Shown: positions 9,946 through 35,447 of the stretch, one piece after another
Layout: each line of letters begins with the position of its first letter
How positions within the stretch are numbered: the first letter of the stretch is position 1
Assembly: GCA_043806755.1 (NCBI GenBank)
Contig: JAZDGS010000051.1
Span: 4,546 to 68,545, forward strand
Source of the DNA: Pseudomonadota bacterium
GTDB taxonomy: Bacteria; Desulfobacterota; Desulfobacteria; Desulfobacterales; UBA2156
Reading direction: 5' to 3'
Length of the DNA stretch: 64,000 nt
Position numbers and translations under genes: made by a program
Notes under the pieces: generated by a model
What the model was told of the DNA's origin: nothing
The model's input: only the letters and a program-made list of their open reading frames with translations
Database searches by the model: none

Positions 9946-12380
<2,435 letters not shown>

Positions 12381-12438
12381 CTGGAATCTCCTTTGTTAAA
12401 ACATATGATCTTTCTATTTCATTTAAGGCTCGGCACTC

Positions 12439-12511
12439 GTGCTTGGCCGTGGAACCAGGGCACCCTCTTTCCTTTGCGGCGGAAGGCGTTGCAGCCAAGC
12501 TTCCTGGCCTG
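12439..12511 (-). promoter_or_regulatory. Structured 5' leader of metK-ahcY: candidate SAH-type riboswitch (H-type pseudoknot)
   Basis: Minus-strand RNA: CAGGCCAGGAAGCUUGGCUGCAACGCCUUCCGCCGCAAAGGAAAGAGGGUGCCCUGGUUCCACGGCCAAGCAC. CCAGG pairs with CCUGG and GCUUGGCU pairs with GGCCAAGC in an a-b-hairpin-a'-b' order. GGCUGCAAC and CCACGGCCAAGCAC occupy the positions where, as I recall it, the SAH riboswitch has ..GCGCUGCGAC.. and ..AACGGCGCUCAC... The class call is from memory and no covariance model was run. Confidence 0.4.
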
Positions 12512-12564
12512 AATGCCGGGAATGACTTCGATCGGTCTATCCTCCAAAAATGAATTAACTTTTT

Positions 12565-12593
12565 ATTTTATGCCAATCAAACCGATTTGTCAA
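12565..12593 (-). promoter_or_regulatory. Sigma-70-type promoter of the metK-ahcY operon
   Basis: Minus strand TTGACA (12593-12588), 17-nt spacer, TAAAAT (12570-12565). It predicts a leader of about 175 nt ahead of the metK ATG. Confidence 0.5.
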
Positions 12594-13133
12594 CCGAAGG
12601 GTGATAATTTTTTCAGATTCAAATCGATCCCGTTATTTCATAAAAAAACAGGATGTGGACTGGTGGGTGATCCGATTTAATCATTGGGAAAAAGAAGTAT
12701 ATCTGCTTGCGGATTTCGAATATCAGATCGCTGGAAAGAGCGGCAACAATGGGACAGAGACAACGCCAGGAGCGAGATGATCTTTCGATACGGATTCGAT
12801 ATCCCGATTACGTATTGTTCATCCTGGATTTGAAGATTTCCGTTGAGCCGGCACTGAATTATTTTCTCTAGAACAACTCGTCCCGGTTTGAATTTTTTTA
12901 GAAAGGCGGTCAGCCACTTCCCGGCTGACCCGGCTATTTGGTATAATTTTTTTATAACCCAAAGGGGTTGGATTGTCAAGGGAAGCAGCAGGAGCGTACC
13001 TGACGGCGGTCGATTCCCGACGTTTTTAGTGTAGTGACAAAACGGACGGCTTGAAACCGTTTGGCCAAGGTAAGTTGCAACAAAAGCGTTTCTTTATCCG
13101 ACACCGAAATGGAATGAGCGGAAACCGTAAGCC

Positions 13134-13298
13134 CTATTTCTTTCGATTCTGGAATTCGGCAGATGGGTCGGATGGCGGTTTTCTTGTCACCTGACAAGAA
13201 TCTTTCATTCATGTTGAGATGCCGAGTTTTGGAAGGATATACGTTTGCAGGACAATCCAAACGCCGATGACCGCAATGAGGATGATGATTTCTTTCAT
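13134..13298 (-). CDS. Candidate small membrane selenoprotein (54 codons with in-frame UGA at codon 30); otherwise a 29-aa membrane peptide
   Basis: Below the ORF-track size cut-off. ATG at 13298 with AAGGGA 8 nt upstream, 40 nt downstream of the mobB stop. Translation: MKEIIILIAVIGVWIVLQTYILPKLGIST-UGA(13211-13209)-MKDSCQVTRKPPSDPSAEFQNRKK-TAG(13136-13134). The N-terminus is a clean TM helix. A Cys lies 5 residues after the UGA. Confidence 0.4.
13181..13200 (-). other. SECIS-like hairpin downstream of the in-frame UGA
   Basis: UGA-AUGAAAGA-UUCUUGUC-AGGU-GACAAGAA: a perfect 8-bp stem with a 4-nt apical loop containing GU. The loop starts 16 nt after the UGA, which fits the bacterial SECIS geometry known from E. 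coli fdhF. Confidence 0.4.
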
Positions 13299-13337
13299 GA
13301 CCATTTCCCTTATAAAAATTCCATGTTAATGCGCAAG

Positions 13338-13838
13338 TCACGATTTTCCGGAGTGAATATATCGTGTTTCAATAAAATCAGCCAATTTTTGAATTTCTTC
13401 CAAACCGAATACCGGAACATTCATTTTAACAGCAGAGTCCGATACCATGGCCACAAGGTTATCGTTATCCTTAAAAAGAGGTTCGCTGTGAACTTGAACG
13501 CGGAATATCTCTATCTTGGGCCGAGCTTCTTTTTTAAAACCTTCGGCAATCACTAAATCGACATCCTGAAAATATTTTTCAAGCGTGTCCAGAGACTCGC
13601 TTTCGAGATCATCCTTCACCATAACAATCTGGCCGGGTGATGAAATAATAACCGTATCGGCTCCGGCATTTTTGTGACGCCAGCTGTCTTTTCCCTTCAT
13701 GTCGACGGCATATCCATGATGAGCGTGCTTAATCGATCCGATCCGATACCCTCTGCTTTTGAGCTCGGCAATCAGCTTTTCAATCAGCGTTGTTTTTCCT
13801 GACGATGAATTTCCGACGATGGAGACAACCTGAGTCAT
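13338..13838 (-). CDS. mobB: Molybdopterin-guanine dinucleotide biosynthesis adaptor protein MobB
   Basis: 166 aa, VVSIVGNSSSGKTTLIEKLIAELKSRGYRIGSIKHAHHGYAVDMKGKDSWRH, a P-loop followed by the KH.HH motif. Confidence 0.85.
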   Translation of the reverse strand: MTQVVSIVGNSSSGKTTLIEKLIAELKSRGYRIGSIKHAHHGYAVDMKGKDSWRHKNAGADTVIISSPGQIVMVKDDLESESLDTLEKYFQDVDLVIAEGFKKEARPKIEIFRVQVHSEPLFKDNDNLVAMVSDSAVKMNVPVFGLEEIQKLADFIETRYIHSGKS

Positions 13839-33527: not shown

Positions 33528-35447
33528 TTGAAACAGATTATATTAGGAACCGCCGGCCACATTGATCACGGTAAAACCAGCCTGATCAAAGCCCTCACCG
33601 GAATCGACACGGATCGGCTCAAGGAAGAAAAAGAGCGCGGCATCACCATTGAATTGGGATTTGCCTCCCTGGATCTCCCCACCGGAGAGCGCTTGGGGAT
33701 CGTGGATGTCCCCGGGCACGAAAAATTTGTTAAAAATATGGTTGCAGGCGCCACAGGGATCGATATGGTCGCCATGGTGATCGCAGCGGATGAAGGGATC
33801 ATGCCCCAAACCGTCGAGCATATGGAAATATGTTCGCTGCTGGGGATTCGGTACGGCGTTGTGACGTTGACCAAAATCGATCTGGTGGATGCCGAATGGC
33901 TGGACCTGGTCCAAGAAGAGGTCCGGGATTTTGTTCGGGGAACGTTTTTGGAAAACGCCCCCATCGTGCCGGTCTCTTCTTCCACCGGCCAGGGGCTTGA
34001 CGTGTTTGTCAAGACTTTGGGCGAGTTGAGCGGAAAGATCCCGCTCCGCCCCCCTTCGAGTCTGCTCCGCATTCCCATTGACCGGGTCTTTATCATGAAA
34101 GGATTCGGTACGGTCATTACGGGGACTCTTATTTCCGGGTTCGTTACTGCCGGTGAGCCGGTTATGATTTACCCTTCGAGCATTTCTTCAAAGGTCCGCG
34201 GAATCCAGGTTCATAACCAGTCCGTCGAAAGGGCCGAGGCCGGGATGCGTACGGCGATCAACCTCCAGGGAGTGGAAAAAACGATGATTAACCGCGGGGA
34301 TGTGATCGCCCGGCCGGAAACTCTGAAACCGACCTATATGATTGACGTGATGTTTCATTTTCTGAAAAGCAATGCGAAACCGGTCAAAAACCGGACCCGA
34401 ATCCGGTTTCATACAGGTACGAGCGAAGTGCTTGGGAACCTGATCCTCCTCGAAACCGACGAGCTTCCCCCGGGACAGACAGCGGCAGCTCAAATTCGCC
34501 TTGACGCTCCGATTGCTGCCGTAAAGGATGATCGATATGTGGTTCGAAGCTATTCTCCGGTCCGGACCATCGGCGGCGGGCAGATCCTCAACCCCATCCC
34601 TCCCAAACATAAACGATTTAAAGCCGATATCGTCGACGGACTAAAACGGATCGCTTCTGATCCGCCCGCCGAGGTCATCCTCCATCATATCCGTCAATCC
34701 GACTATGACGGTATTTCGTTTTCCGATCTGTTGATCATGACCAATACCCAGGAAAAGAAACTCGAAAACATTCTTCAGGGGCTTCTTTCACAGCGGCGTA
34801 TCCTTTTATCGGATAAGGAAACCCGGATCTATATCCACTCGGACGTTTTTAAAACGTTAAAAGAAAAAATCATCAACTATTTAAAGGGATACCATGACCT
34901 GTTCCCCTTGAAAACCGGAATGTCCAAGGAAGAGCTCAGATCCAAATTCCCTCAACATCTTGAGGCAAAGGTTTTTAATCTTGCGATCCAGCAAATGATT
35001 CTCGAGAAATCGATCCAACAAGAGGAGCAAGCGCTTCGTGTGGCCTCCCATGTGGTGATGCTTGGAAAAAACCAGGCGGCGATTCGAAAAAAAATTCTCG
35101 ACATGTATTGCCACAGCTTCCTGACTCCACCCTATTTTACGGAGCTTGTTAAAGACCTGGATCTCAATCCGAAGCATGGATCAGACATCCTCATGGTTCT
35201 TGTTGACGAAGGCGAGCTGATTAAGGTAAAAGAAGATCTTTTTTTCCATACCAGTGCCATAAATGACTTGAAAAAAAGACTCGTTGATTTTCTTGAACAG
35301 AACCGGGAAATGACAACTCCTCAGTTTAAGGAGCTGGCCGGCGTTTCCAGAAAATACCTCATCCCGTTGATCGAGTATTTCGACCTAAAACACATCACCA
35401 TCCGGATCGGCGATATTCGAAAGCTTCGAACCAAAGCCACCAATTAG
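33528..35447 (+). CDS. selB: Selenocysteine-specific translation elongation factor SelB
   Basis: 639 aa. The GTPase domain reads [28 protein letters not shown] long C-terminal winged-helix extension is typical of SelB. TTG start. Confidence 0.9.

Follow-up and report, generated by a model that had tools for sequence, protein, structure and literature searches.

A candidate 54-residue membrane selenoprotein encoded after mobB in a Desulfobacterota genome and its relatives

Bacterial selenoproteins decoded by SelB and a selenocysteine insertion sequence (SECIS), such as FdhA and the thioredoxin-like UxxC proteins, share an in-frame UGA codon and a stem-loop located inside the coding region. In the prevailing model of the bacterial SECIS, G is found within the first two positions of the apical loop, which lies 16–37 nucleotides (nt) from the UGA (PMC13188914). 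The catalogues of these proteins (119 families in the same 2026 review and 111 in BSepDB) favour longer proteins with recognizable domains; a membrane protein of ~50 residues that is cut to 29 at its UGA would therefore be overlooked by catalogue methods. The current study concerns such a gene, encoded on the minus strand directly after mobB (13134..13298) in a 64,000-nt stretch of DNA, hereafter the window, from a Pseudomonadota bacterium (GTDB lineage Desulfobacterota; Desulfobacteria; Desulfobacterales; UBA2156; assembly GCA_043806755.1, contig JAZDGS010000051.1, positions 4,546 to 68,545 of the forward strand). Based upon comparative sequence evidence, we are confident that this unannotated gene is genuine and that its predicted product is a 54-residue single-pass membrane protein containing selenocysteine (Sec). 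It very probably belongs to a widespread family for which databases list only a 29-residue fragment ending at the UGA.

With the SelB-dependent selenoproteins, the family shares the loop G, a spacing within the range of 16–37 nt, a Sec located near a Cys, and the existence of Cys homologues. Unlike the FdhA and UxxC families, it carries U-x4-C instead of UxxC or CxxU, is only ~50 residues long without a thioredoxin fold, and has an unusually small SECIS situated close to the UGA; there is no sequence relation to those families. Sec/Cys motifs in membrane proteins and metal-gene neighbourhoods are also shared with a MerT-like putative mercuric transporter and the SO_0444 Cu/Zn efflux transporter, but these are polytopic transporters with CxxU, UxC or CU motifs and their NCBIfam/Pfam models are unmatched by the small protein. 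SELENOK and SELENOS are likewise small single-pass membrane proteins, with Sec in a polar, probably disordered tail that is predicted to be cytosolic. However, their Sec lies near the C-terminus rather than at the membrane interface and their SECIS resides in the 3' untranslated region. The resemblance is one of architecture only, and no homology is known.

The small reading frame and probable translation past its UGA

A preliminary description of the locus, made from the letters of the window alone, had proposed a small open reading frame (ORF) with a transmembrane helix, an in-frame UGA, a nearby hairpin and a read-through extension. Direct reading of the minus strand upholds each of these elements. 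A Shine-Dalgarno-like AAGGGA (13306..13311) lies 7 nt 5' of ATG 13298, and the first 29 codons (13212..13298) encode a hydrophobic transmembrane helix with an invariant Q18, preceded by a short MKE head and followed by an interfacial LPKLG(I/V)ST segment, as defined by family alignments. The in-frame UGA (13209..13211), which we read as Sec because TGA occurs across the family and Cys in relatives, is followed by 24 codons, including a TGT Cys codon at +5 (13194..13196) as the second half of U-x4-C, and then by TAG (13134..13136), the predicted true stop of the read-through product. This product reads MKEIIILIAVIGVWIVLQTYILPKLGIST-U-MKDSCQVTRKPPSDPSAEFQNRKK, 54 residues in all. Across homologues, codon periodicity is evident in this frame (entropy of 0.87/0.40/1.43 at codon positions 1/2/3), and a Met codon is found exactly 29 codons 5' of the UGA in all 105 homologues with a readable start. 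A competing 121-residue ORF (12976..13341), which looked non-coding in the preliminary description, has no family match in profile searches.

Homologous loci were initially fetched via MobB alone, with no motif assumed. This yielded two metagenome-assembled genomes (MAGs) with 57–62% MobB identity, both of which encode the same small ORF directly after mobB (L003, ...LPRMGVST-TGA-VKEACQVTSK..., and L007, ...LPKLGIST-TGA-VKDACQVTRK...). As in the window, no gene follows the small ORF in L003, and an ECF (extracytoplasmic function) sigma factor gene follows it in L007. The closest relative, the MAG Deltaproteobacteria bacterium RBG_13_49_15 (L001; 96% MobB identity), contains runs of N at 2414-2604 and 2688-2784, which mask exactly the small-ORF locus and the region past it, so no comparison is possible there. 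It does hint that the window derives from an organism closely related to this Rifle-sediment lineage. A profile built from the window, L003 and L007 matched only 29-residue database proteins ending exactly at the stop, and a profile of 65 members retrieved 114 database proteins, ~90 of them 29-residue "hypothetical proteins". The sole named protein among these is Dpo_1c02760 (EMS81137.1) of Desulfotignum phosphitoxidans DSM 13687, and the full-length entries comprise seven with W at the Sec column and one, P0007, with Cys. An exhaustive hidden Markov model search of 1.84 billion cluster representatives produced 740 matches at E ≤ 0.001, and 196 of 260 fetched relatives stop exactly before the Sec column. 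The family is large (~740 clusters at 50% identity), nearly always carries Sec instead of Cys, and is present in sulfate-reducing Desulfobacterota, which possess some of the largest selenoproteomes. It follows that 29-residue "hypothetical proteins" may conceal selenoproteins, and so may entries that show W or G where the DNA has UGA. Public gene calls on short contigs (P0005, P0006, P0008-P0012 and P0116-P0130) render the TGA as W or G through another genetic code, and in L211-L213 the Joint Genome Institute called the tail as a separate 33-residue gene.

Most loci derive from a scan of metagenome DNA with the pattern P-x2-G-x2-T-[TGA/TGT/TGC]-x-(K/R)-(D/E/N/H... GAN)-x-C-Q-V-T, which yielded at least 120 loci; all counts over 123 given here and below are among the matches listed, each of which is a true family member. 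Evidence for translation past the UGA was consequently restricted to columns that the pattern leaves free and to loci fetched independently of it, the unbiased material being these free columns plus a dozen loci (11 distinct sequences) obtained without the DNA pattern. Although the pattern permitted TGT and TGC, the Sec column holds TGA in 123 of 123 loci. The same codon is found in all ten distinct loci fetched without constraint on that codon (L003, L007, L202-L208 and L211) and in five further entries (L205-L213) found via N-terminal similarity alone. Even the entries translated with W (L202-L204) contain TGA in their DNA, the gene callers having used another code. Elsewhere TGA is an ordinary stop, as in mobB. 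By contrast, the stop that closes the long ORF varies (TAA 79, TGA 16, TAG 15), and TGA ends ~35% of long ORFs in the background formed by the window and the family loci. The base 3' of the UGA is either C (69) or A (35), and C or A at this position provides a weak termination context.

Downstream of the UGA, the codons vary in the manner expected of a protein. Codon +1 is CTG in 68 loci, ATG in 34 and GTC in five, in addition to GTT, TTG, ATT and CTT; its middle base is always T and the residue is therefore always hydrophobic. Codon +2 encodes Lys or Arg via AAA, AAG, AGA and AGG, with CGG and CGT also occurring in the independent loci, and codon +4 specifies Ser or Ala, with Ser drawn from both TCN and AGC. 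Among full-length relatives, Cys occupies +5 in 35 of the 38 that are of the W(TGA) type and in 14 of the 15 that are of the Cys type. Beyond this point the tail is a poorly conserved stretch rich in K, N, S, D and E; in tails lacking an overlapping gene, the differences between close pairs fall 41/72/130 at codon positions 1/2/3 of the read-through frame.

Cys-containing relatives, along with conservation beyond the UGA, were the signs that the preliminary description had named for its homologue comparison. Both are present: the TGA column, the downstream codons and the hairpin are all conserved, with coding-type and compensatory changes, and Cys stands at the Sec column in 15-16 of the 53 fetched proteins from which Cys forms were counted, almost all of them full-length cluster representatives. 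DNA confirms TGC in L214 and TGT in L201, the latter corresponding to P0007. Replacement of Sec by Cys beside a second Cys is a classical selenoprotein signature. The Cys forms read (I/V)PTC(M/L)SG(A/S)C followed by anything (NVP, SAS, RAG, SVG, ALG and others), such that C-x4-C is retained in 14 of 15 while the "QVT" varies freely. The hairpin is absent from L214 and still there in L201. The free loss of "QVT" from Cys forms and the disappearance of the hairpin in L214 indicate that the "CQVT" of Sec forms is imposed by the SECIS RNA, and the protein motif, as judged from the alignments, is [U/C]-x4-C. A Sec motif of this type at the membrane interface would be new, and the predicted SECIS is very compact.

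A compact stem-loop as predicted SECIS

The hairpin of the window starts past a spacer of 8 nt (AUGAAAGA) behind the UGA and forms a perfect 8-base-pair (bp) stem of −9.2 kcal/mol within codons +3 to +10. Its arms and loop, UUCUUGUC-AGGU-GACAAGAA (13181..13200, minus strand; loop 13192-13189), place G in loop position 2 and begin the loop 16 nt past the UGA; the family also uses AGGG and AGUU loops. The geometry suggested to us at the outset as suitable for SelB hence agrees with the published model, the spacing corresponding to its lower distance limit (PMC13188914). The gene for SelB itself, the Sec-specific elongation factor, had been placed at 33528..35447 (plus strand), an assignment corroborated by Pfam GTP_EFTU together with three SelB-specific domains (Beta-barrel_SelB, SelB-wing_2 and SelB-wing_3).

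The stem-loop leaves a clear imprint upon codon usage. Throughout 111 distinct sequences the Gln and Val codons end invariantly in G, where the pattern permitted R and N, and the Thr codon ends in A (105) or G (6), always paired with U. In contrast, the codons 5' of the UGA employ synonyms freely, for example CCG 36, CCT 31, CCA 25 and CCC 19 for Pro. The pair 14-27, which the pattern leaves free on both sides, is U-A in 73 sequences and C-G in 38 with zero mismatches. In L205 a TGC Cys codon combined with a Thr to Ala replacement (GCA) converts a U-A pair to C-G, and L003 has G-C at a pair that is U-A in the window. Within a 62-sequence alignment, 85.7% of cells are paired and double changes occur in four pairs; none of 500 shuffles attain this degree of pairing or covariation, and sliding the register lowers the paired share to 34–72%. 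The same 5-bp core and 4-nt loop were recovered independently by RNAalifold.

A number of observations weigh against the selenoprotein interpretation. Firstly, the hairpin is unremarkable when the window sequence is taken by itself: it contains 17 perfect 8-bp hairpins versus ~10 expected, so the significance of this one rests entirely on comparative data, and the surrounding 111-nt region folds no better than its shuffles (z = −0.77). Stems in the family measure 5-8 bp with a median of −6.2 kcal/mol, which is at the small end for SECIS elements, and their distance from the UGA is the shortest that the model allows. Secondly, most loci came from a pattern that imposes part of the motif. Openness of the tail frame is also non-discriminating, with frame +1 often being longer, and in sigma-linked loci the tail region displays the codon periodicity of the sigma frame. 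Thirdly, the Sec column is not uniformly Sec or Cys. A few representatives have G, S or R, and L215 (58-285) has a genuine TGG, reflecting either recent Sec loss or an assembly error. L215 keeps a GC-rich SECIS-like hairpin, GCGCGG-UGGAA-CCGCGC, at the same place. Finally, the window has no tRNA, and none of selA, selC and selD was seen within its 64 kb.

Overlap with sigma factor genes and rival explanations

Directly downstream of the small ORF, 65 of the 123 loci encode an ECF sigma factor, which the window does not. The sigma ORF overlaps the tail in a different frame and, in 55 of these 65 loci (e.g. L143, 915-1567), starts 4 nt past the stem, an offset of +34 when counted from the TGA. 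Among the 41 sigma-linked loci with a 24-codon tail, 39 have ATG at this offset. The loop and 3' arm supply AGGUGA, 9 nt 5' of the sigma start at the expected Shine-Dalgarno position. The closest described parallel is found in E. coli, where SelB can repress selAB by way of a SECIS-like element situated 3 nt from the Shine-Dalgarno sequence of selA (PMC13449736). Both there and in the sigma-linked loci a hairpin, bound by SelB in E. coli and predicted to be so here, is located in a translation initiation region. However, the E. coli element is non-coding and decodes no UGA, whereas that of the small ORF is a predicted working SECIS within an ORF. By analogy, an effect of selenium and SelB upon sigma translation is plausible: binding of SelB and Sec-tRNA, and the choice between termination and read-through, would make the translation of a stress sigma factor responsive to selenium or to the redox state. 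In 18 loci the next gene encodes a zf-HC2 (RsrA-like) anti-sigma factor, whose best model, RsrA, scores 32 bits and falls below the cut-off. Many loci thus resemble SigR-RsrA modules in having an ECF sigma factor (Sigma70_r2/r4) paired with a zf-HC2 protein downstream of the small ORF; the window has no such pair. We know of no small selenoprotein ahead of SigR-RsrA type operons. It is conceivable, if rather unlikely, that the family represents an undescribed and possibly the smallest bacterial selenoprotein whose SECIS doubles as a selenium- or redox-dependent translational switch for the ECF sigma factor. As the window copy has no sigma gene, this regulatory role cannot apply there.

The same arrangement could be taken further, with the UGA and hairpin constituting a selenium-sensing leader for the overlapping sigma gene, the peptide being of minor importance and the window copy a remnant. 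The fixed distance from hairpin to sigma start, the Shine-Dalgarno match within the hairpin, a tail held at 24 codons in most sigma-linked loci with a start at +34, and the E. coli selAB precedent (PMC13449736) would all be expected of such a leader. What makes it improbable is that the helix and LPKLG..T-U-x4-C are conserved as amino acids in both classes of loci and also in Cys forms without the hairpin, and that approximately half of the distinct loci, the window included, have no sigma gene and yet keep every feature. Moreover, a selenium-sensing leader could be an added role and not a substitute for the protein.

We consider it very doubtful that a 29-residue membrane micro-protein truly ends at the UGA, with the hairpin acting in termination, in RNA stability or as the region where ribosomes bind for the gene that follows. 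Such a product is what databases annotate, the AGGUGA match and the ATG at +34 fit a ribosome-binding role, and the hairpin scores as terminator-like on the plus strand. However, the window and L003 retain the TGA, the motif and the hairpin without a downstream gene or a nearby start codon, and the coding strand continues past the hairpin with AAAACC rather than with a T-run. The switches between Lys/Arg and Ser codon families and the NTN codon after the UGA reveal constraint at the amino-acid level, the Cys homologues read straight through with C-x4-C retained, and a true stop is unlikely to be TGA in every case. An intrinsic terminator after the 29-residue ORF was rejected, since AAAACCGCC follows the hairpin on the minus strand and only the opposite strand is terminator-like. 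The plus-strand score of 13181-13200 stems from a T-rich run and looks incidental, no plus-strand gene ending nearby.

Lastly, reading of the UGA without Sec, whether through hairpin-stimulated insertion of Trp, Cys or Arg by a near-cognate tRNA or through reassignment of the codon, would accommodate the database entries with W or G and the TGG of L215, but it can hardly be reconciled with W entries that proved upon checking to be TGA translated with another code, ordinary genes ending with TGA in both the window and the family loci, a hairpin in agreement with the SelB-type model, the presence of selB, and a Sec/Cys exchange beside a second Cys.

Proposed function, gene neighbourhoods and other features of the window

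On the selenoprotein interpretation, ribosomes would start at ATG 13298 and translate 29 codons to produce the transmembrane helix. At the UGA (13211-13209), SelB and Sec-tRNA would bind the stem-loop 8 nt downstream and Sec would be inserted instead of termination, after which translation would run for 24 more codons. The product would carry a [Sec]-x4-Cys pair right behind the helix, followed by a polar, lysine-rich tail that is probably disordered. The helix is flanked by K+R counts of 0.9 (N side) and 3.2 (C side), a distribution that speaks for an N-out, C-in topology and suggests that the Sec/Cys pair and the tail would face the cytoplasm. An AlphaFold2 prediction for a natural Cys form returned a single helix with a predicted local distance difference test score of 66 overall and 84-88 over residues 1-20, and was otherwise uninformative.

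The neighbourhoods tabulated for the 123 loci suggest that the chemistry is associated with the membrane and involves either thiol/selenol redox reactions or thiophilic metals. Upstream of the small ORF, a HybA/HmcB-like 4Fe-4S protein with a twin-arginine translocation (Tat) signal is encoded in 48 loci and an unnamed polytopic membrane protein of ~160 residues in 54. The latter (L081-L200, e.g. L158, 1870-2353) ends in ...KKQWT..R, has no Pfam/NCBIfam match and is always paired with the 4Fe-4S protein; together they resemble a membrane redox module of two subunits that has yet to be named. When an ECF-type promoter was sought upstream, only the conserved C-terminus of this membrane gene, KKQWT..R-stop, was recovered. 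DtxR-type regulators, FeoB and CopA are found near many family members, and L208 neighbours a sigma-54 activator, DsrE, thioredoxin and the same iron-sulfur/membrane pair. For L214, the sole Cys form with neighbours examined, a DsbD_TM-thioredoxin fusion starts 5 nt downstream. The window has no homologue of the sigma, anti-sigma, iron-sulfur or membrane partners. The likeliest chemistry for the Sec/Cys pair would be reversible formation of a selenenylsulfide or binding of a thiophilic metal at the surface of the membrane, a suggestion offered with far lower confidence than the decoding itself. The protein may then assist electron-transfer or thiol-disulfide modules of the membrane as a small partner in redox reactions or metal handling. 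A possible link is thereby drawn between selenium, membrane iron-sulfur and thiol-disulfide modules, and an ECF sigma/zinc anti-sigma stress pathway.

The mobB gene of the window (13338..13838, minus strand; Pfam MobB, 9.6e-49) terminates in TGA (13340-13338), 39 nt before the small ORF, and is probably co-transcribed with it. The adjacency emphasized in the preliminary description is therefore real at this locus. As a trait of the family it does not hold, mobB being upstream in only 21 of the 123 loci.

With regard to known families, the earlier failure to assign the peptide to a named family was repeated here. None of the 119 families of the 2026 review (PMC13188914) fits, nor do the deep-Sep candidates, and the text of BSepDB gives its family count of 111 and never mentions membranes, so that no family-by-family comparison extends to that database. 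Single-sequence scans with the small peptide or its RNA gave no match in Pfam, NCBIfam or Rfam, and Sec-to-Cys versions, 65 members and ten natural Cys forms gave no Pfam/NCBIfam match at or near the cut-off. With BSepDB outside the comparison, the family appears to be new. Its decoding would be of the standard kind. Several specific candidates were also tried. The FeoB-associated Cys-rich membrane protein (FeoB_associated), MgtS, CcmD, KdpF and others gave no profile match, and the NCBIfam models named in PMC13188914 for TsoA LULAxC, DG, DW, DF, GOS_B/C and OS_HP3/4/5 were unmatched in NCBIfam release 20. A peroxiredoxin (PxxxTxxC) yielded only a faint PrxQ match (best E 0.007, 11 of 65 members), and a single helix of ~50 residues makes the thioredoxin fold of a peroxiredoxin impossible.

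The remaining observations concern the rest of the window. A scan for further in-frame-TGA genes, intended as positive controls, returned adjacent or antisense ORFs only, and scanning the window and the locus with Rfam gave a single sub-threshold tRNA-like match and no SECIS family. This match, at 13020-13090 on the plus strand, scores 24.5 bits against a cut-off of 29 and has the anticodon loop CUUGAAA; ARAGORN makes no call, and the match, which coincides with the minus-strand hairpin 13046-13060, probably reflects this hairpin rather than a tRNA. On the minus strand, a terminator-like hairpin with a T-rich tail, ACGGTTTCAAGCCGT (13036..13060), was identified by consensus scan ~75 nt past the TAG and is the probable end of the transcript carrying mobB and the small gene. 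Between this terminator region and metK lie ~600 nt of minus strand (12380-12980) in which Rfam detects no riboswitch. The stretch does contain a promoter-like, near-consensus TTGACA-17-TAAAAT at 12593-12565 and a TTGACA...TATAAA pair near 12975-12945.

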